A stretch of 58,490 nucleotides of DNA, filler included, from Jimgerdemannia flammicorona (GCA_003990765.1; 2 parts of 2 records of this genome joined end to end with filler, not necessarily neighbours in it); one strand, 5' to 3'; positions 26,201 to 54,294 are shown, counted from the first letter of the whole stretch. Notes: generated by a model from the letters alone, not told the origin. Translations and numbers: made by a program.

Positions 26201-29199
26201 GGGGGAAGTGGGGATGGGTCTGGACATTGGCACCTAAATTCCTCCTTGTTAGATGATGAGTCCCAGTGGGAGGAGTGGGCTAAAGACATTTAGCTGAAGG
26301 TGGAGAACTGGTGGCAGGAAGGTGTCTCGATTGGGGTTTGGTGGATGAGAATGAAAGAGATGGCCAGGATATACTGGAGTGAGGCTGGTAGGGAGGCAGG
26401 GAAGCAGTGAAGACAGAGAGTGCATTGGGCTTCTACTAGATTGGCTAGGCTTCTGGAGGAGTGGGCGAGACTGGCAATAGTAGAGAGAGAAGAAGATTAG
26501 AGAGTAATGAGGGCGAAGATAGAGGTTGGGGAACTACAACAGGTACTGTGGGAAGAGGAAGAGGCAAGAGTGCAAAGCTTAGTGGCACAGCTTCAGTGGC
26601 AGGGGCTGGAGGAAGGGGAGAGGCCTTCCAAGTTTCTCACAAGGACCCTTAGGGCAAAAAGAATTCAGCAACAGTGGGAGGGGGTACTTGACTTGGATGG
26701 TGTACTAGTACATGGTGTACAGGATATTCTTGGATCACTGAAGGAGCAGTGGAGTGGATTGTGGAGTGAGGAGGAGAGTGGGGTGGATGCTACTACCATT
26801 GACCAAATATTGGAGGATTGGCACCCACCATGAGCTGAGGGACTAGGTGATCTGATGATATCTGTAAAGGAGGATAAGATCTACCAGGTTCTTGCCACAA
26901 CAGTCTCAGGTACAGCACCTGGGGAGGATGGCCTACCCTGGGACTTCTGGAAGTAAATGGTTGGTGTCTCAGGTGTGATGGAAGAGTTGACGGCATTGTG
27001 TAACTCTATATTGCAGACAGGGAGATGGGTAGGGGAGCAGGATCTTGGGCTGGTGATACTGCTTTATAAGAACAAAGGAAGGCGAGAAGATTGGAAGAAC
27101 TGGCAGCCAATAATGTTACTAGATATGGACAGAAAGTTGGTAACTAAGGTGGTGGTTGTGAGGCTACAAAAGATAGTCCAGCAAGTTATAGGTATTGAGC
27201 AGAGGGGATTTGTGGGTGGTCAGCTCATTAGGGATAGCACAGCCTGGGTATATGGAGTTATTGAAGGGGCTAGAGCCTGTAGACTGGATGGGCATCTGGT
27301 CTTCTTGGACCAGGAGAAGGCTTATGATCAGGTGCAATGAGTCTGGCTAGTGAAAGTATTGGATAGAATGGGGGTTCCAATCCAATTTTGGTCAGCAATA
27401 GTCAGCCTACTGGAAAGGAGTAGGGCTGCACTCATATATAATGGGTATAGAGGGATAGCATTCCCTCTGAGTAGGGGGGTGCCCCAGGGGGACCTGCTAT
27501 CCCCCATCTTGTATACTCTTTCCTTGGAATCCCTAATGAACAGAATTAGGTGGAGGATAGTGGAGCTCTCTATCTATAACATTGGGTGGAAAGTTGGGGC
27601 CTTTGTGGATGATATGGTGGTTGGTTTGGGTTCAATTGCTGATGTCAAGGAGCTCAAGAAGACAGTGGAGTGGTATGAGGAGAACTCTGGGGCAAAGCTG
27701 AATTGGTACAAGTGTGAAACAATGGTGCTAGGCAACAGTCTGGTGGGAGGAGAAGTTATAGGAACAATTGTCCCCACCAGTGAGGCAGTGCAGTACTTGG
27801 GCATCTATTTGTCAGTCTATAGGTCAGTTCTGCCCAAGCTTTGGTGGGAGCAGCGAATTGGAATTTGGGAGGAGGACCTGCAGGGTTGGGGGAGAAGACA
27901 CTTTTCTCTGGCAGGATGGGTCTCAATTTTGAATGTATATTGGCTGCCGAAGCTGTGGTATTTGGCTTACCATCTGGACTTCCCAGCCTGGGTGGTGAAG
28001 AGATTGGTGAAGGTGGCCAAGGGATGGATTTGGGCTGGCAGACGAAGCCAGATTGGTTGGGAGACCTTGTCCCTACTGGTGGCGAGAGGTGGTCTTGGGC
28101 TGGTGGACTTTCCCAAATGACTACACTGCTTGAGGGCATGGTGGCTTAAGAGGGTGGTGGAGTTGCGAGGAGGGGGTTGGGTTCCCCTGCTGCAGAAGGT
28201 CTGGGAGAGGTGGTCATCACCAAGAGGCTCAACTGGTGATCTTCTCTCATTGGTTGAACTTCAGAATACTGCACAATTGCAATATAAAGGTTTCTGGTAG
28301 GAGATAGTGGAGGGGGCACACTACATTGGTATTCACTGGTAGAGAAATGAGGGGGAGGAGGCTGGGACCTAGATATGTAGAGATGGGATGGTATACTGCT
28401 GGGCAGCATACCTCTACTTGAGTTTGACATTGGTGATGGAATAGAATGCCAAAGAGGACCAGGCCAGGATCTGAGGCCTAGTAGTTGGTAAGGAGTTGGA
28501 ATTGGAAAAGAGTGGGACTGGTATGGTGTTTGGATCTGAAGTACCACAGTGCAAAAATGGATGCCACTGAAGTACTGGGTGGTCTGGTGGCACATGCTGA
28601 GGAGGAATATAATGCTCAACTTCTGCTCAGGGCACCTTATCATAGGGGGTTGCTTTGACTGTGAGGAGTGCTATAATGTAGGGCAGGAAGGAGGCTTTGT
28701 ACAGATGCCAGAACATTGGCTAGGAGAGTGTGAGGTATTGGGAGACTTTTGACAGGTCATCAGGGACTACTTAGGGGTAAGGCATAGGAGAGATAATATA
28801 CAGGACTTGAGGGATCGATTGGTAGGAGGGGTAGGAAAGGAGTGGATTACCTTAAGTTGGGCATTGGCTATTTGGGTTGGGCTGGCCAGTTACTGGCTAT
28901 TTGTTTTTGAGGATGGGAGATGACAGAGCTCAGGGAGCCAGTTATCATGGTGGCAGAGACTTATGGAAGACACCTTGATAGGCTGGTGGCTTGGTTGGAG
29001 GCTATAGAGGGGTTGGAGATACTGCTTGGTGGAGAAAATCTGTGGACAGAGCAGTGGGAGAGTTGGAGTCATTGGTGAGAGGATGATCTTTATTCATAAA
29101 GGGGTGGGAAGGTGCTCCCCTATGGGGATTGGATAGTAGGTGGTGATATTGTATACTTATTCATAGACTGGTAATAAAGATGGAGTCTAAGTGACTAAA
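23280..29199 (+). mobile_element. Near full-length L1/Tx1-like LINE (ORF1 + APE-RT-Zn ORF2), pseudogenised
   Basis: ORF1 relic ~23427-25460. APE motifs SLNINGL, LFLLQ, GGDFN and SDH. RT motifs APGEDGLP, QRGFV, FLDQEKAYD, GVPQGDLLSP, AFVDDM and YLGI. C-terminal CFDC..EHWLGEC. AATAAA at ~29173 just before the contig end. 5' boundary is approximate. Confidence 0.92.
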
Positions 29200-29299
29200 N
29201 NNNNNNNNNNNNNNNNNNNNNNNNNNNNNNNNNNNNNNNNNNNTTAATTAATTAANNNNNNNNNNNNNNNNNNNNNNNNNNNNNNNNNNNNNNNNNNNN
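29200..29299. other. Artificial contig-joining spacer
   Basis: 44 N + TTAATTAATTAA (stops in all six frames) + 44 N. Flanking pieces are 29199 and 29191 bp, as expected for length-sorted concatenation. Confidence 0.95.
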
Positions 29300-31797: not shown

Positions 31798-32350
31798 GTC
31801 AATCCTTGTCAGTAAACTCCGGTTTGCTTCAATTACGATGGTCTATGAAAATAATTACCTGATATCAAACAGGGAATATGCGAACAGTCAATTCTGGTAC
31901 GCCAGTTCCATTACGATGATCTGAGAAAATAATTAACTGATATCAAACACCCTCCTACAACCCTCACCCGCTCAACCCCTTTCCCGCCACCGCAGACACT
32001 ATTCCTTAAATGTTAATGGACTGTCAATTCTGGTATGCCTGGTCAAGCTCACTTCCATCACGATGATCTGTGAAAACAATTACCTGATAACGAAAACGCA
32101 CCTACAACCTTCTCACCCTACCACCGAAACTGTTTTCTAAGGATGCAAAAATTCAATCCTGATACGCCAACTCCGGTTCGGTTCCATTACGTTGGTGTAA
32201 GAAATAGCTACCTGGTATCAAACACCCTCCGATAACCCTTATCCTTTTCTCACAACTGCCGACACCGTTCCCTAAGGGTGAATGGGGATATGCGAACAGT
32301 CAATCCTGGTATGCCAGGTCAGGCTCGCTTCCATTACGATGACCTGCAAA
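31798..32350. repeat. Five degenerate direct repeats (90-145 bp spacing)
   Basis: TCAATYCTGGTAYGCC..TTCCATTACGATGATCTG..AATTACCTGATATCAAAC recurs near 31798, 31888, 32023, 32153 and 32299. Confidence 0.7.
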
Positions 32351-32523
32351 AATACATACATAATATCTGCACGAGATTCCAGGTAAGATTCGAACGATAA
32401 TTCTGAGTTAAATTTTGAAATCGATTTTTTATTATTATCAACGATGCAGATAAAAAATAAATAAATAAAATAAAAGAAAGCCAATTGTAAGACGAAACAA
32501 GACCTTTATAAAAAGAAGAGAAT

Positions 32524-32828
32524 TCATCCCCATCGACTCTGACGCACACACCTCTTCCACTCGTCCTCCCGGCTCTCCTCGTCACTTTCCTCCTCGCCCT
32601 CCAACACGCTGAACTGTATATCGAGCTCCTGATCGCATCCAGCGTACAAACCGCACATAAAGTACACTTTTGAATTCGTACTCTCCAGCCTTGGGCGCCA
32701 CGAAATCCAGTTTGATGGTGAGGCGTTTCTGCAGCGTAATCCTCTTGATAGCGAGCAAAAGGGATCACCAAGATGAGCCACCAACTCTCCTCCTTCTGAT
32801 TCGGGAAGGAACAATAACAGGTCCGAGA

Positions 32829-32874
<46 letters not shown>

Positions 32875-35800
32875 CTTCGCGCTCGAGCACGACCTTGACC
32901 TTGACAGGACTTCCAGCGTGCAGATCCTCGGCGTTCTCAATGTCGAAGTTGAGCTCGATGTTGGGATACCTGTTTACGAACCTTGCGAACCCAACACAAT
33001 AGCTACAAGGTCTTGTCCTGAACGCGTTAGGCTCGCAGTGGAGAAAGCGGTCAGTCTTGTCGTCGGCGGAGCAGAACGTGAGCAGCTCGACGGCAGTCAA
33101 GCGGCACTGCTTGCGGCAGGGGACGAAGACGATGGTGGGTTTCTCAGACGAGTAGGTGGTGATGGCGAGGTGAGTTGACTTGGCCATAGCCATCATGACT
33201 GACGCGAAGTGCGGGATGTTGTAGCTCTGGATGTGGATCTCGAGCGGCACGGGACAGACCGATGGGTGGAAGTTGAACATGGATTGGGCTCTTCGGACAG
33301 ATCCATTCGCCGAGGTCTCGCGCATTGGCTAGCGTGGTACTGAGCGCGATGATGCGGATGGGGTTTTTCGTCTGCGGTGCAATTAAATGCATGCGAGAGA
33401 CTATGACCTCGTGGGTGGGACCGACGTCGCCGCCAATGAGGTGCAGCTCGTCTGCGATGAAGAGTCCGACGGTCTGCACGTTCTTGCGCTGCTTCCATCG
33501 GCGGGAGATGACGTCCCCTTATGTACGTCGCCGCGCACGAGTAGCTTGAGATATGCGCTAGTTTCTCCAGTGGGTGCCACGATCTCCTTACCGAGCGGTT
33601 CGAATTTGTTTTTTCAGTCGACGACGCGTGGATCCACGAGCTCTTGGACAGCCTGAGCAGGGCGAACTCGGCGCAGATAGTCTTGTGGGGGACGCCAACA
33701 AAAACGTTCTCGTCGGTTGAGTAAAGCGTGTTGAAGGCCTGGGTCTGGATCGGGTTAAAATTGTCAATCCACTTGCTGTAGATGGCCTCATAGCGCGGGT
33801 TCCGCAAAGCCGATACGGGCAAGGGCTGGAGGTCGTGGGACGGGTACCGAGCAGCTCGCCGATCTCCTGCCGGTTCAGGTCGAAGTACCTCTCCCATAGG
33901 AATTCCTTCTGCTCAATCCTCTTGATCAGGTCCACGGGGACGCTCTTGAATTGCCTGAGAGGTTTCATACTAAGCCATATGCGCTTCTCGACCATCTTGC
34001 ACAAATCGAACGCCTTCTCCGTCAGCTGCGACCACCCGCGCTTGAGGCAAATCTCGAATACCGCTAGGATCCTCCCGCGCTCTGCGCTCTGCGTGACGTA
34101 AGCCATATCCGATACGAGTGCGAATCCCTCTAGCTTGAGCTGTGAAATGTACGCCTGGACTAGGACGTTGATCTTGCTCGTGGGCTCCCAGATGCCCTCC
34201 TTGACAGGGATGGGTACGCGTTCGAGCAGCTTTGACAGCTCTAGCTTCTCCTCCTCGCGGAAGGGGATGTACTTAAACTCGTCGGAGAGGGAGCAGCTCG
34301 GTATGGCTCATCATGGGCTTGAGATGTTGGTTGTACGTGGATATGGAATTATGCGTCCGCCCGAGCTCCATCCCCCGGAACCGCCCAGTCTTATTGTCGT
34401 ACTTGATGAGGTTGCACTTGTTCAGCACCGTCGCCGCCGCGTGTATCAGGTTTACGCGCTTCTGCTCTAGGTATTGGTCTTCCTCGAGATCCTCCTGCAT
34501 GACTCCATACAGGCTCGGGTTTCCCGTCATTCGGACGTACAGGGACGTGTAGCCTAGCCACTGGACAGCGTCATCGCGGTTTCGGAAAGAACCTAGTACG
34601 ATCTCTGCGTTGAGGTTATCTGCGAGCTTCGCGATGAACTGGGACTCGATGGACAGCTGAGTGTTGATGAGCGAAACCCAGTATTGCAGCTCCGTATGCG
34701 TCGTGATGATGATGCCCTCGCCGTACGTGTCGTACTGCGGGCTTCCCGCATGGCCCATCATCTTGTGGGCTCAGCTCGACCCAGCGACCTTTCTCCGGCG
34801 AATAAATCTGCGTGCCCTTCATGATGACGGCGTGCGCGGGCAGGTTGACACCCCATGCGAGCGTTGCGGTGGGGCTTTGGATCCTTGACGGAGGCGGCTT
34901 CGGACTGTAACTTGCGGAGTCCTGGCGGAGAAACTGCACGATGATGTCCTTCTCGAGCGCCATATCGCAGATGGTCTTTGCGGTCTCCTTTCGTGAATGC
35001 ACAATGGTGATGACCTGGTTCTCTTGGCGTGCGCCGATCTGCTCCATGACCTTGTCATAGTAGACCTCGTTCAAGACCTGATGGCCTTCTTCTCCGTGAT
35101 GCCAATGAATTGCTGTTGGAGCGGGCAAGGGCGATATGTGGATTCGAAGAAGAGTCCCGATTTTGGGTCGACGCGCAGGAAGCTTGCGACGTCCTCGTAG
35201 TTGGGGAGCGTGGCGGAGAGCCCGACGAGGCGGATGACTTCTTGGGTCTGTTTCCATGTTGTGTATGGTGCGGGAGACGATGCTCTCGAGCACGAGACCG
35301 GGCTCGTCGTGCAACAGATGGATCCCGTCGATTATGGTGAGGTAGACGAGGTTGGTTTAGCTGCGGTCCGTAGGCTTGCGGATGATGACATTCCATTTTT
35401 CAGGGGTGGTGACGATGTTCTGGGTTTCGGCTATCTGTTGTTTGGTCAGCTGCCTGTCGCCCGTGAGCTCCGCGACATTGATTCCATAGGGTTTGAGACG
35501 AGTCTCAAAGTTGCCGACCATCTCCTGGACGAAGGCCTTCATGGGGAATAATGCACCCAATCTTGAACGCGTCCAGGTCGATATCGTCCGTAGCCTCGTT
35601 GTGGTTCTTGCCGATTTCGTGCAGAATGGTGAGCATGGCGACGTTTGTCTTTCCGGCGCCGGTGGGCGCGTAAACAGGTTCTCGTCGCTTCCTAACGCTG
35701 TCCCACTAGAGGCGTGACTGGACGCGGTTGAGACTCACTGTGCTCCCAAACGCCCCCTGGGCCCACTTCGGAAGGGACTCGATGAGGACCAGCTTCTCGC

Positions 35801-39694: not shown

Positions 39695-41377
39695 GTAATG
39701 TAACGGTCAGGACGTAAGCCGTTCTATTCGCATACCGCACGAACTTCCACGAAATCACAACACATACCCTTTACCCTTACCTATGGCCGAGAGACTCGGC
39801 TTCCGTTTGGATCCCCCAGAATCGTTGACAGTCATTCCTTCAAGCCTCAAGATATCCAAAAGAGTTAATCCATCGCCGTCGACGTCTTCGTAAAACCCAA
39901 AGTAAAAAGTTGTTCTGGACCCTCTTTCGCAAGACGAGTGCTGCAGAATATATTACTGCCTCATTCAAACGGTCGGATCCTGCTCGAGCTCAATAGCTAC
40001 CATGGCCCTGGAAGTATTCGTGGGGCAACAAGACGTATCTGATTAACCAAATACGGGCACAAACGGAAAATGTCTCAGCCGTCGAAACTTCCGCTACTTC
40101 CGCTGCGCATCGTCACCGTCGTACCTGACCCATCATCCCGCCAACAATCCTAATGTAAAGAAATTTCCTGAATGATCTTCCAATAAACAATCAAACGGTA
40201 TTGCTGCAGCGTATGTTCTCGCCGACTGTTGAGCGAACGTACGAGTTGCTTATGAACATCCTGAGATGGGCACAGTGCTTCATTTCATGGGACACTGTGG
40301 CTCACAGAACGATGGTGCCAGAGCCCCCATCTTTAAATATCAAGATACGAGCAACCTTTATTTTATTGACGCATTGCGCCTTGCAAGGACCCGGGTTTGT
40401 CATTCCTATCTCCTGCCAAACTTACCATGTCGTCCAAACCCTGGTCGATCATGGCATTCCATACTCCATAGGTTCGTATTGCCCCCTGCCAGACGATCTC
40501 TCGAGAACAAATTCTATCTGTTCCTTGCCGGTGGCTGCACAGCCGAACAGCAATGTTGGAGGCGCGTGCGTCCGTGCAAGGACCAAATGACACCCGGCAA
40601 TGCGATTACTTCCCTGTCTAGAATAAGACTCAGATTTATATATAATGTCTAAATTAGACGTTAGAATTACAATTATCAGATATTTAGAAAAATATTGCTC
40701 AGTTTAACAAATAGTATTAAATCTGAAAATAATATTCTAAATTTAAATGTTTATCATATTTATCAGAGAAATAATAAATTAATAAATTTATATATAAATT
40801 CTTAGCCTTATAATATTCAATTATCAGGATTTTTATAAGATACAATCAAATATGACTATGTAGATATATTTTAAAATTAAATCAAACTATATCAATACCC
40901 ACTATTTAGTTTGATATTATCAAAATAATAATTTTTTTTTTACATTTAGAAGTTTATATATTTTCCGATAATATTAGCAGGACTAATGGTTGAAGGGTGT
41001 AGTTTGAAATATTTAGTTATTATACTTCTTTCTTCTTTTTTCTTTTTTTCTTTTTTTTTTAATAAAAAAAAAAAAAAAGCATAACTACATTGTAACCCTG
41101 ATATAATATGTCAAAGTGTCATCGTTCATATGTTCTGAAAATTGTCGTACTCATAGCACGCTCTGACAAGGGTAAAAATCGTGTGTGTGCTTGGATTTCA
41201 ATATCAAAGCCGGTAAGAAATGTGGCTTGCAGGTTGCGTGGTAATTATAGTGCCTAATTATTCTGTCAATCCTGAAGGTGTCACAAGTTACGCATTAGTA
41301 AATTGAAAGCTTATTTCCTTTGATTACGGCCCTCGTCCGCTGACAATTCTTTTGTATAACCCTCGATCTCCCTCACC

Positions 41378-44300
41378 ATGTCCTTCCCCGAACTTCCAAC
41401 CCCCTCGCTTGACGAAATCAAGACTTGGGATGAACACAGAGTCTTTGAGCACTTTCAACACCCTGCTTTCCAATTGAAACCTGACCATGTGGCAACCTTG
41501 CGCGATCAGGATACAGACGGAGCTGCTCTAATTATACTCACCGAAAATGACCTATTGAGACCTCCATATAACTTACGAGGCGGGCCTGTGAAGAAAATTA
41601 TGAACGAGATTGCCAGATTGAAAGGTAATTGTCATCATATTTATTCTGAATAACAGTCGTGGAGGGGCAACAAGGCTTCGTCCAACCCGTCGTTCGGTAA
41701 TGGCCACACCGACGGCAATAAACATCCCTTAAATTTGACTAGGAACGAGCGGTCAAGAGTCATCTATGGAAGGTGTGTAATATTTCCTTTGCTTTTGGTA
41801 ATTATTGCCTTGGCGCAACATAAAACTATATCTGAGATCATATTATAACTTGTGTTTGTCATTGTTTGACAGCTATTGCCCGGAGCACTGTGGAAGCTAG
41901 AATTAGGAATGAAATCGAAATCGAACTGGTGACAAAGAAGATCGATCAACTTCGTAAAGAACGATCGGAACTTCGTGAAAAAGATATCCTACTCCTCGAG
42001 CTCCAGAAAGAACAGCAGCGAGGTAGGTAGATTTTACGGTTTTATTGTGCAGTCATTTAAAGGGATAAAATTTCGGAAACCCCGCGAACATTTTACTGAT
42101 AATATATATATAACCAGGCTTATCTTCCAATCTGCCGTCGGTTAGTAGCATCGGTATTTTTTAGTGTCAGATTTTCGGGATGCGATTTTTATGCAACTTC
42201 CGTTTTCCTCCACACGTATATATTGTACAGGGCATGAGGCGTGATTCAGAAGAGATAAAAATCGACAAGAGAGACATCTTTAGCAGCCTCGACGAACTTC
42301 ACAGCAAGGTTGACAGTCTGCCCAAGACTATACTTGATCTTCATGAGGATATAGTCCCGCGACTCTTTTTCATCTTTCCCGAGGATGGTCATTGGTGGGC
42401 ACCATCAATTGACAGCCTCTTCATCAAAACGTTCCGTCTATACTTTCTATGCGAACACGAAGTAATCGAAAACGGCAGCACGAAAAAACAGTTCCATCTG
42501 GCATATCATGACGGTTACCATGTTGCCCGACCACGCGAGGTGGATTATTTTGATATTCGATAGACTATTACAATTCGAGTTCTTATTATTTATTATTTTT
42601 AACATATCTTCTTGAAATTATTTTAGTTTGTAGCTAAATATGGAGCATATATATGTTTGGTATGTTGTCTGTTTGAGCTTGAGCGTCCGAACTCTCTTTG
42701 CACGCCATCTAATATTTCTCGTATAAAATAGATTTTGCCTTGTCTATCACTGGCCGTACGCTTGGGAGGACACCTATTAGAACGTGTGCTTACATTCGGG
42801 GAAGCGACTTCAACAGCATACAAGGCAAAAGAGGCATCCATCTTTACGGACTACGAGCTTGAGTTCTGCGCAGAGACTGAGAAATGCTTTAAGATGATTG
42901 TCTCCAACCTCGAGGCTACTGATATCCACGTCAAAAAATATACAACTAATGTTCCACGGTCGGATCAGATTCAAGAAGGATCGTTAGGACTGATAGAAAG
43001 ACCTGATTTACGAGAACTTCAAGGTGCAGCAATACATCGATTTTCTTTGTTAAAGTGTGCACGCGCGGATTTCTGTATATGCTCATGATTTCTTTTCGAA
43101 TTTTGGCTTATAGCTTATCTTAAGGGTATAGATAACTCCAACCGACTTGGGAATCTGCAGCGTGTGCTCCGTCGTGGCAAAAACGGTAGTATAACAGTTC
43201 GATGGGTATGCAAGAATCATGCCTCAGAATGGGACACGACAAACGCTGTTCAGAGTCTTCAGACAGCCATCCAGAACAATTCCATAAATGGAAACATTGG
43301 GTTTGACGACGGGACCCTGGAGCTGATGTTCGTATTATTTACCGGTATTTTAAATTCATCCCGTATCGTTTATATATACTCAGATGGTCTTTATTATTAT
43401 TATTATCAGGATCAAAGGATTGTTAAGAGGACCTTTGCATACATTTCGAAATTCGGTGGCTCACGTGCTGTCAAGTATCCCGCTGCGGAAGATCAGGTAA
43501 TCAGTTTGACTTTAAGCTTTCTTTGCTTTCCTAGAAGGTCTAATGAGTGAGCAAACTCTAGTTTTGTAGATTGCAAAAATGCTGATCCAGAAGATATTGA
43601 AGCTTTTTTCAATGCTCTATCCATTATTGAAATTCTTGAGTAAGTTATATTGAATTATTGTTTAATGAACTTTATATAATAAATTGTAATATATCTTACT
43701 ATTGCCATACCTATATAGGGTGACATATATGGATATAGAAAATATAGGGTATGATAATTTATTGTTACATGTTTTGTCCAATGGCTAGCTGATTGAAAAC
43801 TCCATGATAGTTGCTAAAAAAAATCAATGATTATTGATCTATAGAATTACAAAAATCCTTCAAAAGTGTATCCACCTTAAATATTTGGATCTTCCAGGTA
43901 CACTATAATATAGTTACATTTTATATTTGAGATTTTCATCTCTGTGGATTTTTATGAGCTTTTGGGAGCAATGTCGGCAACAATGAACACGAATCCCCAT
44001 TTGGTTTTTCGTAACTGTTGGCTGTATCTAATCTTTTTCTGTCTCTACAGACTGTAATATTGGTTATAAGGAAACCAGTTTGCTAGCTGAAGCGCTGAAA
44101 CTGAACACAAGCCTGCAAACCCTGAATCTGGAACGTATGTGTGAATGAAACGCATTACATTTTTGTATTAATATGTTTGGTGTTCTAGCTAACAATCACG
44201 CCTAAATTTATGTATTTATCGGTAGGAAATGGTATTGACGAGAAGGGGGCCAGTGTGCTAGCTGAAGCACTGAAAATGCACACGAGCCTGCAAAACCTAA

Positions 44301-46523
44301 ATCTACGAGGTATGTAACGATGTGGAGAACGATATTGTTGAATACTTCTGTTTGTTGTTCTAGTTGGCAATTATGCATATACCTTTGCTGTAGACAATAA
44401 TATTGGCGAGAATGGAGCCAGCGCACTAGCTGAAGTACTGAAAGTGAATACGAGTCTGAAAACCCTGAATCTAGGAAGTATGTAGCAATGAAACCTGTCA
44501 TATTTTACATTCATATGTTTAGTGTTCTAACTGACAGCCCCGCATATAGATTTTTCGTTGTTCTCTGTAGAGAATAATTTTGGTGAGATAGGGGCCAGCG
44601 CACTAGCCGAAGCATTGAAGATGAACACGAGTCTGCAAACCCTGGAGCTAGGAGGTAATTATGTAGCAATGAAGCACATTAAATTTTTTGCATTCACCTG
44701 TTAGCACCCTAGCCGACAACCACGCGTATACATTGTAGGCAATAGTATTAGCGAGATGGGAGCCAGCGCGCTAGCCGAAGCGCTGAAGACGAACACGAAC
44801 CTGCGAAACCTAAATTTAAAAGGTATGTAGAAATGAAGCACACCATATTGATTATGTTTAACATTCTGGTTTACAACCACGCGTATACATTTTATGTGTT
44901 CCTCTGTAGGCACAGGTATCGGAGAGAAGGGAGCCAGCGCACTGGCCGAAGCATTGAGAATAAACTCGAGTCTGCAAACCCTTAATGTGGGAAGTATGTA
45001 GAAATGAAGTGTATTATATTTCTGTATGCATCTGTTTTGAATTCTATCTGACAACGTGTGTATACATTTTATGTGTTCCTTTGTAGAGAATGGCATTGGC
45101 GAGAAGGGAGCCAACGCAATAGCCGAAGTACTGAAAATGAACACGAGCTTGAGAAATCTGAATCTACACGGTATGTGTAAATGTAGCATATTATCTTTTG
45201 TATCAATCGGTTTGGTGTTCTTACACGCATACATTTATATAGACAATGATATTGGCGAGAAGGGAGCCAGCGCACTAGCCAAAGCATTGAAGATGAACAC
45301 GAGCCTGCAAAAAATAGGGCTAGGAAGTATGTAGGAATGAAGCGCGCTATATTTTGTATTAATTTTTTTTACTCTTCTAGCTGACAACCGCGTTTATACA
45401 TTTTATGCGTTCCTCTATAGGCAATGGTATTGGCGAAAAGGGAGCTGGCACATTAGCCGAAGCACTGAAAATAAACACGAACCTGCGAACCCTAAATTTA
45501 CAAAGTATGTGGCAAAGAAGCACATTATATTTTTCATTCATCTGTTGAGTGTTCCAGCTGTCAACCATGCATATACATTTGATATCTTCCTCTAGACAAC
45601 CGTATTCGCGAGAACGGAGCCAGCACACTAGCCGAAGCACTGAAAATGAACAGGAGCCTGCAATGCTTATATCTACAATGTAAGTAGATATAAAGTGCAT
45701 CACGTTATTGCATTCATCTGTTTAGTGTCCTAGCTGACAACCGCGCGTACGAATTTTTTGTGTTCCTTTGTAGACAATTATATTAACGACCAGGGAGCCA
45801 GTGAACTAGCCGAAGCATTGAAATTGAACACGAGCCTCCAAAACCTGGATCTAAAATGTAATTATGTAGGAATTAAGAACATTATCTTTTACACTCATCT
45901 GTTTAGAGTAATAGCTGACAACCACACGCATACATTTTTTGTGTTCCTCGGTAGGCAATCGTATTTACGATCAGGGAGCCAGCGAGCTAGCCGAAGCACT
46001 GAGAATGAACACGAGCCTGCAAACACTGGATCTAGAAAGTACGTAGGAATGAAGCGCATTATAATTTTGCATTAATTTGTTTAGTGTTCTAGCTGACAAT
46101 CACGAGTATGCATGTTTTGTGTTTTTCTGTAGACAATCGTATTTACGATCATGGAGCCCACGCACTAGCCGAAGCACTGATAATAAACACGAGCCTGCAA
46201 AACCTGTATCTACAGTGTATGTAGGAATGAAGCACATCACTTGTTGGCATTCTGTTTTTAGTGTTCTAGCTGATAATCACGTGTATACCTTTTTGCGTTC
46301 CCTGCAGACAATCGTATTTACGATCAGGGAGCCAGCGAACTAGTCGAAGCACTGAGAATGAACACTAGCCTACAAAATTTGGATCTACGATGTATGTAGG
46401 AATGAAGCCCACACATTTTTGCACTCATCTGTTTAATGTTCTAGCTGACAACCACGCTTATGTTCCTCTGTAGCCAATAACATAAGGCGGAAAGTCAACA
46501 CAAACTTCAGAGTCTTGTTTTAA
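41378..46523 (+). CDS. SAM / coiled coil / COR-like / RI-type LRR protein (NLRC3-like repeats), about 27 exons
   Basis: An open spliced model can be built with GT-AG introns throughout. SAM-like exon 41378-41624 (DQDTDGAALIILTENDL..GGPVKKI), coiled coil 41873-42022, LHEDIVPRLFFIFP..FRLYFLCEH..HLAYHDGY..PREFVAKYG, DLRELQAYLKGID..LGNLQRV..VRWVCKNH, degenerate LRRs, 14 regular LRR exons, terminal exon 46474-46523. The junctions between ~43300 and ~43850 are the least certain. Confidence 0.85.
44051..46391 (+). repeat. Tandem array of 14 intron+exon units, one 28-aa LRR per 84-nt exon
   Basis: Exons start at 44051, 44226, 44394, 44571, 44739, 44910, 45087, 45243, 45421, 45596, 45774, 45955, 46133 and 46308. 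Each is exactly 84 nt, phase 1/1 and stop-free, with consensus xNxIxxxGASxLAEALKxNTSLQxLxLx. Introns share GTATGTAGGAATGAAGC..GTTCTAGCTGACAACCAC..GTTCCTCTGTAG. Confidence 0.95.
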
Positions 46524-46617
46524 GAAGTATGTGAAAGTGGAGCATATTGCGTTTTTGCATCCATCTGTTTATCTTATAGCTGACAACCACACGTATGCAT
46601 TATGCGTTCCTCTGTAG

Positions 46618-46775
46618 CAAATAATATCGGAGCTGATTATGACAGATATCTATACACAAAAACATTTCTTCATCTCCACAAGCTCATGCCAATAAAAACG
46701 TCATGTCATCCCAGCCCTCGTCATCGACCACCGAACATCACGTGGTCACTCCGCCACTTCATAGCGTGTGGCTAA
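46618..46775 (+). other. Possible alternative terminal exon of the LRR gene
   Basis: Preceded by a full array-type intron (branch GCTGAC, TTCCTCTGTAG). Phase-1 open frame xNNIGADYDRYLY...IACG*. Confidence 0.45.
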
Positions 46776-48415: not shown

Positions 48416-49168
48416 AAAACAGCGTCGGCTAAGGCTCTGAAGCAGAATACGACCTTTACCGAGCCAAAGCTCGAGGTATGGTAGATTGTAAACTACTGTT
48501 TGCATCTGCATGATGGAGTCAAACTCACCGTTTGCGCGTGTTCACTCTTCACGTACTCATCCTCGGGGAACTACATCGGCGACGAGCCATCGTCCGTCGT
48601 CGTCCGTCCTGTGGCCCGTCGTTCATCATCCATTGTCGTCCTGTGGTCCGTCGTCTGTCGCCCATCGTTGTCCTTTTGTCCGTTCTCCTGCTGTCTGTCG
48701 TTCATCGTCCATCGTCGTCCTACGATCCATCATCACCCTGCGGTCAATCGTCGTCCTGCGGTCCATCGTCCTCATGCGAACCATCGTTATTATGCGGTCC
48801 ATCCGTCGTCCTGCAGTCCATCGTCGTCCGAACGACGATAAACCGTAGAACGACGATTAACCGCAGAACGTGGATCGACGGTTAACCGCAGAACGCGAAG
48901 CGACGATTAACCACAGAATTAACATTATCCACAGAATGCAGAACGGCGATTAATCATCGCCGCTGAGTGACTCAGTAGTCAATGGCCTCGGATTGGGTTC
49001 GGATTGGGTTCGGATTGGGTCCGGATTGCGATACGAAGCTTTATGTGCCATTGAATCAATCTCACGATCGGTGAATATTCGTTCACCCCCTACCCACCTC
49101 CAGACAATATTAACGATGAAGGGCCTCACACCGCTGTGCCTGAAGCAGAATACGACCCGAATCTTGTG
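48416..49168 (+). pseudogene. Orphan degenerate LRR exons (second subfamily, LKQNTT type)
   Basis: AG-flanked relics at 48416-48475 (AKALKQNTT) and 49104-49168 (NINDEG..LKQNTT) with GTATG donors, plus a truncated start at ~48567-48587 (GNYIGDE, acceptor mutated). Interrupted by TCGTC-rich simple repeats. Confidence 0.7.
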
Positions 49169-51269
49169 GTATGTCAAAATTTATGGATAATTGTTTGCAG
49201 CTGCATGACAGAGTCTATTGGGAAAACGGCCTATTCTTAAAAAAAAAAAAAAAAAAAAAAAAGAGCTCATCTTGCTCCGTATTCGCCACCGCATCGTTCT
49301 AGGTATTATAGATAATTGCTGCAAAAGCTCCGAATTTTGTCTGTGGAAATTGGATAAGCGAAACTCGTACAGGATCCGAATCAGTCATTCATCGTCGTCG
49401 TTCTGTGTTTGTCCTGCATTATGCGGTTCATCATCGTTCCCCATTCGTTTTGTCATGCGTCCTGCGATTCATCGTCGTTCCGCGTTCGTCCTAGCCTAAA
49501 TGGGTTTAAAGACACTGGACAAGGCATTCGGCGCAAGGTCCTTGACAATGGCAAAGTGTACACCATTGACGTGAGATTGGCGTGGTGCTGCTCCACAATT
49601 TTGTTATTTATTTATTTATTTTGGAAAGGGGGAGGATAGTTGATATTATCTGCGGTCTGCGTCATTTAGTCGAGCTCAACCACCACCGTTCCCTTACTTC
49701 CCTGCAACATACAGGCAGCCGAACGCTTCCGATTCGGAATCGCCCGCAGATTGGACGAGGAAGTCAATCAGGACGAAAAGGTATTTGTGCTATAGCAACT
49801 TATGAGAATAATGGAGCAAATAAATTATTTTCTTGCTCGAGACTGTGACGTCACCATCGGACTGAGACGTCACCGGAACGTGACGTGATCGGCTTTGCGT
49901 CATCATCGTCAATTCCTGTCGGCAATCATGTTTTCTCAGGAGGCTCTCAAGACGCGGAGGAGGTAGTGGATGAGGCGGTGGCAGAGGAGGATAGGCGCTC
50001 AGGCGCGCAGTTGAGGCGGTGAATCTCCCCCCACCAAGGACGATGCCGTCACTACAACGTGATCTCGCACGTGATCTTGCACGGTCACCAATGTAGATAA
50101 TGTGTAATGTGGATAATGCGGATAATACGGATAATGCGTATGCAGAATGCGGATAATGTCTACGAATAAGTCAGCCAATTATTACGTCACATGACCTGTC
50201 GTAACGTCACGGTGTCCCGCGAGACCGGGTCTCGTCACTCGTTCCGTTCGGAGCATATTATAGAAGAACATTATTATATGAACCACGTGTATAGAACATT
50301 ACCTGAAGGAACTTACTGGTTGTATTGACCATTTTTCGTGGTGCGGAGGTCATTGACGCGGATGGTGTTGGTGCGGAGAGTGTTTTTTTTTTTTTTTTTT
50401 TTTAATAGCGGTAATAGTATCACCAACATATTTACTACCTAATACTTCTAACTCTGTTTGATAGCTCCTTTGATTAGTGAGAGTGTTTTTAATTTAGTAG
50501 GTAATAAGTCGAAATCAAATTGAATATTTTCAACCTACTTATTTAATAGCGTTTTTCGAGAATATTTTGTTTGGTCTGATGGGCCAGAGGGTGTTGGTGC
50601 GGAGGGTGCCAGTGCGGAAGGTGCGGAAGGCGACGTCGATGCGGCCAGAATCCGTCCGGAGTGCCCTGGTGTGGACAATATCAAGGAGGAGGGAACGAAA
50701 AATTGGTGTGGACAGCATCGATGCGGACAGCACCCCTGGTCATGTTGACGGGAGGATAACTTTTCGAGGACAAACTACACCAGGCAATATCATGACCAGT
50801 GCCGTTTATCAGAAAGGTGCAAGTGCGCTGCTCGAAAACAGAGGACCCTGCCGAGACGCGACATCGCGGCCTGCTGAGTACACCATCAGTGCGGACGGGA
50901 CGGGTATGGACGGGACCAGTGTGGACAGCGTGGGTGTAAGGGACATACATTTAAGTAAACATACCAAAGTGAATCAAAGATAATTATAGCCTCAACCATA
51001 GTAAAAAAATAAAAATAAAAGTAAAATAAAAACAAACCCGAACACTTTTGATAGTGCTCCAAATGTTTGAGATCTCGGAGTTGGCTGAGAAGGTAGTCAG
51101 GCGAGCGGCGCATCGTCACTTAGCGGTTCGATCCTGTTTTAGGCATCACGACGGTTTGACCGACTTGGCGGCCATTGATTGAATTATGAGATCGAATTCT
51201 GAGTGGGCACACAAGTGTCCATCACCCTCCTATTAATAATCATTGGCAGAATGGGAGAGAGCAACATTC

Positions 51270-53736: not shown

Positions 53737-54294
53737 TATGGTATGGTCGAGGTGGTGTTCTGCATCAAGGACTCACCTAGGGCGTGTGCCACCTCGTGGC
53801 GGATCCTGTTCCCGGAATATGAACAGGATGAGCGAACACACAAATGGTGAGCTTGATTCCATCACGCATACCTTTGATATTCAGCGTGGTCAAGGTCGTG
53901 TTCTGCTTCAGAGATTCAACTAGCGCGTGAAATCTCGTCTTTGATGTTATTGGCTGAACATGAATAGGAGATGGATGAGCGAACACACACATATCAGGAG
54001 CTTAATTCCATCGCAGAGCTGTACACAATTCTTCACATAGTTTCGACATACATTTGATATCCAGCTCGTGTTCTGCTTCAATGACTCGGCTAGAGCGCGT
54101 GCCCCCTCGTTGCCGATTTTGTTCCCTGAACATGGGTGAACACGCACATATCGTGAGCTTTAATCCATCGCGCAGCTGCACACAATGCTTCATAGAGTTC
54201 TGACATACATTCGAGATTAAGCGTGGTCAATATATCGCATTTTGCTTCAGAGACTCGACTAAGGCACGGGGCCTCTCGTCGCTGATATTGTTGC
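53737..54294 (-). pseudogene. Four orphan frameshifted LRR exons (LKQNTT subfamily)
   Basis: Exon relics 54294-54209 (86 nt), 54125-54052 (74 nt), 53953-53872 (82 nt) and ~53812-53737, e.g. GNKIGNEGARALAESLKQNTS. GTATG donors and a shared intron motif GATGGAWTYAAGCTCAC..GTGTTC. Confidence 0.85.

Follow-up and report, generated by a model that had tools for sequence, protein, structure and literature searches.

An array of 14 leucine-rich repeat (LRR) exons in the fungus Jimgerdemannia flammicorona probably forms the binding domain at the C-terminus of an intact and expressed gene of a Mucoromycota-specific family, in which it follows a SAM-like domain, a coiled coil and a middle domain, and was probably built by ancient duplication of intron-plus-exon units and stable since. 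The gene lies in a window (the whole stretch of DNA analysed) of 58,490 nt from assembly GCA_003990765.1, made of two record parts and filler, and all positions are those of the window. An initial annotation of this sequence had proposed the array as part of a diversifiable fungal immune receptor, with a specificity that could be changed in frame by exon skipping, unequal crossover or exon conversion. The layout of the array described there has held up in nearly every detail; the mechanism of diversification has found less support.

All 14 LRR exons are preceded by AG and followed by GT. Every one carries two nucleotides of a split codon at its 5' end and one at its 3' end, and all array introns are therefore phase 1. 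The array and its 3' end are laid out as follows:

44051-46391 (+): LRR array of 14 exons, 84 nt each, separated by 13 phase-1 introns that are homologous to one another
44051-44134, 44226-44309, 44394-44477, 44571-44654, 44739-44822, 44910-44993, 45087-45170 (+): LRR exons 1-7, each 84 nt
45243-45326, 45421-45504, 45596-45679, 45774-45857, 45955-46038, 46133-46216, 46308-46391 (+): LRR exons 8-14, each 84 nt
46474-46523 (+): terminal exon, a cut-down 15th LRR unit and tail, SNNIRRKVNTNFRVLF, with the stop codon TAA at 46521-46523
46527-46640 (+): relic of a further unit in the 3' untranslated region, with an intron-like copy at 46527-46607 that has GT..AG, then a decayed exon start

The run of 14 consecutive 84-nt, phase 1/1 exons agrees exactly with the initial annotation. 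Its extent needs amending, since the 14 full exons are followed by the shortened 15th unit with the stop codon and then by the non-coding relic. The 15th unit is about 30 nt shorter than the regular ones. When a unit is used as a blastn query, it matches the relic at 46553-46617 (79%), and the relic is retained, unspliced from 46474 to 46647, in one contig (record 14) of X2, one of two sequencing runs described below. These decayed units at the 3' end mean that units can also be lost.

The array introns measure, in order, 91, 84, 93, 84, 87, 93, 72, 94, 91, 94, 97, 94 and 91 nt, close to the 70-95 nt first noted. They can be aligned from end to end, with a mean pairwise identity of 0.705 (range 0.56-0.81), next to 0.737 (0.63-0.87) for the LRR exons. 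Common to them are a consensus 5' end, a pyrimidine-rich 3' end and a branch-site-like CTGAC motif inside the conserved stretch TAGCTGACAAC. A blastn query of one intron-plus-exon unit matched every other unit across both parts, with E values down to 2e-42, and Tandem Repeats Finder reports periods of 178 and 353 on the array. The homology of the introns, the blastn matches and the tandem periods together exclude chance and identify intron plus exon as the duplicated unit, as had been proposed.

One LRR exon encodes one 28-residue LRR of the ribonuclease-inhibitor (RI) type. The repeat consensus is N-x-I-G-E-x-G-A-S-A-L-A-E-A-L-K-M-N-T-S-L-Q-x-L-N-L-x-x, and all 14 repeats, each of exactly 28 residues, follow the RI-type pattern LxxLxLxxNxIxxxGaxxLaxaLxxNxx (28-29 residues). 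Positions L21, L24, L26, N1, I3, G7, A8, L11 and L15 are invariant or kept in at least 12 of the 14 repeats, and the scaffold (G7, A8, L11, A12, E13, L15, N18, L21, L24, L26) is invariant or almost so. Variability is focused at the x positions of LxxLxLxxNxI and in the loop that follows; the columns of highest entropy are 28, 27, 2, 6 and 4 (2.95-2.06 bits). Across the 14 exons, column 27 (the last full codon) reads ERGGKGHGQQKEQR. The split-codon series D,R,D,K,G,G,K,D,S,N,Y,C,N,Y is that of the 5' split codon of each exon; in column 28 these residues recur with an offset of one exon. Both residue lists are exactly those of the initial annotation, and the column entropies bear out the contrast it drew between a near-invariant helical part and variable x positions. 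Single LRR exons are too short as queries for Pfam: one matches PF13516 (LRR_6) with an E value of 0.041 and another has no match. In a strictly modular array of this kind, the loss or gain of any LRR exon preserves the reading frame, and the in-frame modularity first described is therefore real.

A second array was not found within the window by blastn of the unit or by tblastn of relatives. One LRR unit gives a weak single tblastn match at 54064-54123 (-), with 55% over 20 aa and an E value of 6e-4, at a place without an array. On the opposite strand of the array itself, an antisense stop-free frame of 177 codons (44701-45234, -) spans some three LRR units together with their introns; Pfam finds no match in it, and it probably results from the composition of the repeats.

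The gene model around the array has 26 exons and 913 codons, with GT..AG at all 25 introns and no internal stop. Its product is ordered as a SAM-like domain, a coiled coil, the middle domain, an irregular LRR or cap and, at the C-terminus, the 14 regular LRRs. The exons upstream of the array are:

41378-41624 (+): exon 1, 82 aa, carrying the start codon and a SAM-like domain and ending in phase 1 (open reading frame and splice sites)
41873-42022 (+): exon 2, coiled-coil segment, in frame with exon 1 and covered by exact-match contigs
42118-42140 (+): tentative 23-nt exon between the coiled coil and the middle domain, the weakest call of the model
42231-42539, 42627-42659, 42732-43023, 43114-43327 (+): four exons of the middle domain
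43410-43496, 43562-43639, 43719-43748, 43845-43897 (+): four short exons, linker and irregular N-terminal LRR or cap

Exon 1 resembles SAM domains at a level below the Pfam cut-off (SAM_1 with an E value of 0.017 and 16 bits against a cut-off of 23; SAM_2 with 0.12). Against PDB sequences it has 26 matches at E<=1, nearly all to SAM domains such as those of L3MBTL3, polyhomeotic and SARM1; the best is L3MBTL3 (E 5e-4, residues 15-80). A 40-nt exon candidate at 41657-41696 was dropped, as the phase-1 end of exon 1 connects to 41873 without it. The tentative exon at 42118-42140 is the sole AG/GT combination found that links the donor at 42022 (phase 1) to the acceptor at 42231 (phase 0); an alternative to that acceptor lies at 42250, and none of the contig pieces listed supports the tentative exon. 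The middle domain is about 270 residues long, and tblastn of relatives covers 42237-43301.

The roughly 500 aa before the LRRs are filled by the SAM-like, coiled-coil and middle domains. No NACHT, NB-ARC or other nucleotide-binding domain was found by Pfam in five upstream open reading frames. Nor was a ROC-COR GTPase domain found by Pfam in the upstream open reading frames or in two relatives (P0023 and P0017). Without a NACHT or NB-ARC domain, and with no space for one in a 913-aa model, the gene product is not a nucleotide-binding LRR receptor (NLR). The immune-receptor label is thereby left with the LRRs as its sole basis, and LRRs of the RI type are found in RanGAP, axonemal proteins and actin-regulating proteins as well.

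The middle domain defines the family. A HMMER scan with the 103-aa exon at 42231-42539 found 347 cluster representatives (clusters at 50% identity) at E<=1e-3. Twenty of these 347 relatives were looked up, and the 15 that have an organism name comprise two from Endogone sp. and 13 from Mortierellaceae. Identity in the middle domain is 69% to Endogone and 38-42% to Mortierellaceae, which places the gene in the Mucoromycota and, among the lineages in the database, nearest to Endogonales. Named relatives include P0023 (KAF9989650.1 of Mortierella antarctica), P0017 (KAG0053389.1 of Gryganskiella) and P0001/2 (RUS16121/2 of Endogone). The gene model is collinear with residues 192-717 of P0023 at 35% identity (E 1e-74), and the two share the order coiled coil, middle domain, LRRs (LRR_6 in P0023, E 5.5e-44). 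Their LRRs are 46-48% identical; P0023, unlike this gene, lacks the SAM-like start.

Eighty relatives, P0023 and P0017 among them, were scanned against Pfam, and none has a Pfam family for the middle domain or a NACHT, NB-ARC or ROC domain. LRR_6 was detected in four of the 80 (P0017, P0023, P0071 and P0084), and F-box-type LRR matches in two others. In one relative that lacks Pfam LRRs, the AlphaFold model nevertheless has an LRR-like fold at its end (residues 246-350), so the true share of LRR proteins in the family is probably above 4 of 80. In the middle domain, Pro, Arg, Phe, Glu, two His and Tyr positions are invariant, and Cys residues nearly so. The pattern that recurs over 42231-43327 and P0010-P0150 is PRLF..LP, FRLYFLCE(C/H).EH, H..HLA.H.GY and P.EF, followed by LGNL.R..T..G.V.WVC..H. 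The conserved Cys and His residues hint that the middle domain may bind metal. By inspection, with no formal comparison, ART motifs of the LRRC9 type, as given in PMC7955679, were not seen in it.

Structural searches speak mainly to the LRRs. In the VIA-wide search with the P0109 model, all rows fall on residues 246-350, an LRR-like tail, with a best Z of 6.9, and the domain itself was barely probed; the ESM Atlas search gave LRR clusters only (0.77-0.79). Against the PDB, the LRRs of a relative match RI (E 1e-27), NOD2, NLRP, axonemal LRR proteins, LRRC34, DRC5 and RanGAP1, and the model of this relative superposes on RI with a root-mean-square deviation of 3.4-3.6 A over 287-289 columns. The DSSP strand in a relative's model corresponds to repeat columns 23-25, and the exon border thus lies two residues past the strand.

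Evidence of expression comes from contigs of two small public sequencing runs (X1 and X2), with 0.17-0.18 of the words present in them. The little-covered bins 41000-41200, 42005-42205 and 43412-44014 were given no weight. Exact-match contigs end at predicted exon borders (41871-42020/42023, 42731-43023 and 43112-43327), and 46474-46647 is also exact. Over exon 2, record 2 of X1 and record 9 of X2 are exact at 41871-42020/42023 and have extra letters on both sides. In record 6 of X1 (698 letters), 43112-43327 and 44048-44134 are separated by exactly 248 letters, the summed length of the four predicted exons in 43410-43897, across 720 nt of genome; we read this contig as a spliced transcript. 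The contigs also contain one candidate splice variant:

44550-44570 (+): possible second 3' splice site for LRR exon 4, lying 21 nt further upstream, in frame and adding 7 codons

This candidate comes from a single contig (X2 record 13, depth 5.8, 0 mismatches), in which the match starts at 44550 inside a longer record, just after the AG at 44548-44549.

Many more contigs resemble the gene than match it exactly. At 90% identity or above there are 446 in X1 and 185 in X2, most of them at 90-99%, and summed contig depth is very high over the LRR exons. Hundreds of contigs at 90-99% indicate that the organism expresses many close paralogues. The 15 joints listed (67 more joints and 741 pieces are not) come from contigs of high depth that carry foreign letters where the pieces meet, and such contigs are most likely paralogues that map piecewise.

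The array arose by old duplication of intron-plus-exon units and has no sign of recent unequal crossover or conversion. No two units are closer than 87% in exons or 81% in introns. The exon and intron trees proposed in the initial annotation were built by maximum likelihood, from exons, introns and both; they are star-like, with terminal branches of 0.07-0.37 substitutions per site. Their single supported clade, units 10-14 (84-86%), is absent from the intron-only tree. With separation along the array, distance does not rise for introns and rises slightly for exons. No identical tract shared by two units is longer than 30 nt (units 12-14), and in a permutation test of tracts one of 78 pairs falls below the Bonferroni line. 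Low p-values in this test were rejected as a sign of conversion, as the tracts lie in conserved scaffold and the test ignores heterogeneity among sites. No decayed or inverted exon copies occur in the 13 array introns, which are uniform at 72-97 nt, and relics are found only past the stop codon. No tandem paralogue was found in the window by blastn or tblastn. The array is thus old and stable, given the low maximum identity, the star-like trees and the lack of decayed copies inside it, and the unequal crossover and exon conversion once put forward have left no recent trace.

Selection was assessed between repeats within one protein rather than between alleles or paralogues, and the concave positions (columns 22, 23, 25, 27, 28 and 2) were fixed from the canonical motif, not from the data. 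By pairwise Nei-Gojobori counts, the proportions of nonsynonymous (pN) and synonymous (pS) differences over all codons are 0.233 and 0.368, for a nonsynonymous-to-synonymous rate ratio (dN/dS) of 0.55. Scaffold codons have a pN of 0.109, a pS of 0.381 and a dN/dS of 0.22. A second neutral proxy, the mean intron difference, is 0.295. Counts on trees were made by parsimony, as the concave nonsynonymous rate relative to the global synonymous rate. The concave ratio is 1.18 on the exon-plus-intron tree (p 0.15) and 1.02 on the exon tree (p 0.47); the corresponding ratio is about 0.9-1.1 at loop and helix x positions and 0.27 in the scaffold. Change at exposed positions is thus about fourfold faster than in the scaffold and close to the neutral rate. 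This much of the expected pattern of dN/dS across the 14 exons stands; an excess over neutrality at concave positions is suggested and is not established.

In the reading we favour, repeated old tandem duplication of one 84-nt exon with its intron would have built the LRR domain. The units would then have diverged in place, purifying selection holding the hydrophobic and helical scaffold and the exposed strand and loop positions drifting about neutrally, so as to give a different surface to each repeat on one horseshoe. By analogy with the structures of RI, NOD2 and NLRP, the horseshoe may bind a protein partner through its concave face and its strand-to-helix loops, and the SAM-like domain and coiled coil may mediate self-association. 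The product would be a sensor or adaptor that is not an NLR. Its symmetrical phase-1 exons permit in-frame loss, gain and skipping, which in this lineage would be rare evolutionary events and not an active generator of diversity.

The alternative closest to the initial annotation is a diversifiable non-self receptor, for immunity or allorecognition, whose specificity changes by exon skipping, unequal crossover, conversion and positive selection on the concave face. The frame-neutral exons suit such a receptor, as do the placing of the highest variability at strand and loop x positions, with concave dN at or above the neutral proxies, and the receptor-like build, in which LRRs follow an oligomerisation module and a conserved central domain. 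Hundreds of paralogue-like contigs are on record, and among the joints listed these diverge at the bases of exon ends and exon starts, which are the variable codons. There is the one possible alternative acceptor at 44550, and exon-modular LRRs are reported to be alternatively spliced in human NLRP3 (PMC6642158) and in brown-algal ROCOs (PMC11378527). Against this stand the lack of a NACHT, NB-ARC or ROC-COR domain, the lack of recent duplication or conversion and of inactivated or inverted copies in the array introns, unlike in Ectocarpus, and the fact that the window has no tandem paralogue. On the better-supported trees the excess over neutrality falls short of significance, and no exon-skipped form of this gene occurs among the pieces listed, which are a minority of all pieces. 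We consider this alternative unlikely.

Several results nonetheless weigh against our preferred reading of an old, stable binding domain, and most of them concern selection and exchange. Pairwise counts at concave codons give a pN of 0.448, a pS of 0.282 and a dN/dS of 1.93, on 3.4 synonymous sites; with the dS of all codons as the denominator instead, it comes to about 1.35. On the intron-only tree, which is weakly supported, the parsimony ratio rises to 1.40 (p 0.009). The values of 1.93 and 1.40 leave room for diversifying selection. Exon distances and those of the flanking introns are uncorrelated (Mantel r -0.04 and -0.10), and in a lag+1 control the exon distances correlate with those of introns taken one unit further on in the 3' direction (r 0.42, p 0.026); with four tests made, this correlation may be due to chance, or it may be left over from old exchange at the exon level. 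A large paralogous family in the contigs is what would be expected of a recognition family. The status of X1 and X2 as RNA is a guess in the run records, inferred here from intron-less joins. Foldseek with the P0109 model (pLDDT, a predicted local confidence score, of 75) gave 0 matches at E<=1e-3 for the fold of the middle domain.

A broader proposal is that the Mucoromycota own a large expressed family of LRR receptors without a nucleotide-binding oligomerisation domain (NOD), in which a SAM domain or coiled coil is followed by a novel domain bearing Cys and His and by RI-type LRRs, with a sensor built on the same 84-nt module as animal NOD/NLRC genes, serving in non-self or symbiont recognition and diversifying at the exon level and on the concave face among paralogues. 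This is speculative and rather unlikely; if it were true, the 84-nt module would either predate the split of fungi and animals or have been reinvented.

The gene could instead encode a housekeeping scaffold, an RI-type LRR adaptor of the RanGAP, axonemal LRR, tropomodulin or CARMIL kind with no part in recognition and with x positions that are unconstrained surface. Such a role would agree with the presence of axonemal LRR proteins, LRRC34, DRC5 and RanGAP1 among the best PDB matches of the relative's LRRs, with the near-neutral rate at x positions and with an old and stable array. It is made improbable by the restriction of the family to one lineage, all 15 named relatives among the 20 looked up being from Endogone or Mortierellaceae, and by its high multiplication (347 clusters and many paralogue contigs), a pattern seldom seen in housekeeping scaffolds. 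That the array is a pseudogene in decay or a tandem-repeat artefact of assembly, for which only the shortened 15th and relic 16th units at the 3' end speak, is scarcely credible in view of GT..AG at 25 of 25 introns, no internal stop, exact intron-less contigs and units that differ by 13-37%, which excludes collapsed or duplicated reads.

The gene matters whichever of these roles it has. Work on fungal innate immunity centres on NLRs with WD40, TPR or ankyrin sensors, and sensors made of LRRs are seen as belonging to animals and plants. Here, the exon grammar of animal NOD/NLRC genes, one 28-residue RI-type repeat per 84-nt exon, occurs in an early-diverging fungus, and the LRR module is joined to a family-defining domain without a Pfam match in place of the NOD. 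If the family is a recognition system, it would be a new class of fungal receptor, through which one could test whether fungi and animals inherited the LRR exon module from a common ancestor. Otherwise, the gene is still a clean case of domain growth by duplication of intron plus exon, and it flags a conserved domain without a Pfam match in the relatives scanned.

Other features of the window lie outside the gene. A reverse-transcriptase fragment (RVT_1, E 1.7e-15) at 27341-28120 (+), about 1 kb from runs of N at 29200-29243 and 29256-29299, is a retroelement beside an assembly gap. An open reading frame at 33588-34307 (-) has a Sec63 Brl domain (E 1.8e-37), and with its same-strand neighbours over 32334-35356 it may belong to a helicase gene of the Brr2/Sec63 type. 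A cluster of short tandem repeats (48600-49500), with periods of 11, 18, 25, 32, 41 and 54 nt, lies some 2 kb downstream of the LRR gene.

Among known systems, one close in layout is that of vertebrates. In most human NOD/NLRC genes, each exon encodes a single 28-aa LRR and its border keeps to a fixed position in the beta-sheet; Hoss et al. (2019) present LRR exon modularity as a precondition for in-frame alternative splicing, demonstrated for human NLRP3 (PMC6642158). The present gene likewise has 28 aa per exon and a border at a fixed place near the beta-strand, a likeness in exon size and general border place, and the LRRs of its relative match NOD2 and NLRP structures. It differs in having no NACHT domain and in carrying a SAM-like domain, a coiled coil and a domain without a Pfam match, in its early-diverging fungal host, and in array introns that are still recognisably homologous to each other. 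The RI protein itself (RNH1) shares the 28-residue repeat of strand, Asn ladder and helix. It consists of LRRs only, however, with alternating 28- and 29-residue repeats as described in PMC6642158 for NLRP3 modelled on RI, whereas here 14 repeats of 28 follow three other domains.

The precedent of one LRR per exon in brown-algal ROCO genes, invoked in the initial annotation, is in print, as is the statement that fungal NLRs mainly have repeats other than LRRs (PMC3341825 and PMC10197012). For Ectocarpus, Zambounis et al. (2012, PMC3341825) describe "type I LRR exons" with one LRR per 72-nt exon, intact and inactivated LRR copies in introns and on the opposite strand, signs of positive selection, and many loci that are recent or pseudogenised. 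Both systems place one LRR in each frame-neutral exon of equal length, in candidate receptors that form a multigene family. The Ectocarpus exons encode 24 aa of a plant-like LRR type on ROC-COR GTPases, whereas those described here have 84 nt and 28 aa, are of the RI type and come without a GTPase. Inside the array, unlike in that account of Ectocarpus, there are no exon copies in introns and no unit pair above 87%.

Similar repeats also occur in metagenome contigs, in which a scan for GAxALAEALKxNxxL found at least 131 loci. Of 68 locus strands with at least three motif matches, nearly all have gaps that are multiples of 84 nt, and those arrays are therefore intron-less. One contig (L040/L041, reverse strand) has an LRR-only gene with at least 12 exons of exactly 84 nt in phase 1; loci L006, L011-13, L044, L059, L062, L074, L075 and L079 were also flagged as having more than one frame. 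The L040/L041 gene has the same reading register (NxIGDxGA...LxLx) and phase as the Jimgerdemannia array, and its first three introns are alike. Unlike that array, it has introns of 44-55 nt, a GC content of 48%, LRRs from the start and no middle domain upstream, and a nucleotide pattern specific to the family had 0 matches in the metagenome contigs. No description of exon-per-LRR genes in these fungi was found in the open-access literature. With the 84-nt layout present in NOD/NLRC genes and in an unrelated metagenome contig, it is a recurring layout and not special to this gene. What is specific to this gene is its fungal host, its still-homologous introns and the set of domains attached to its array.

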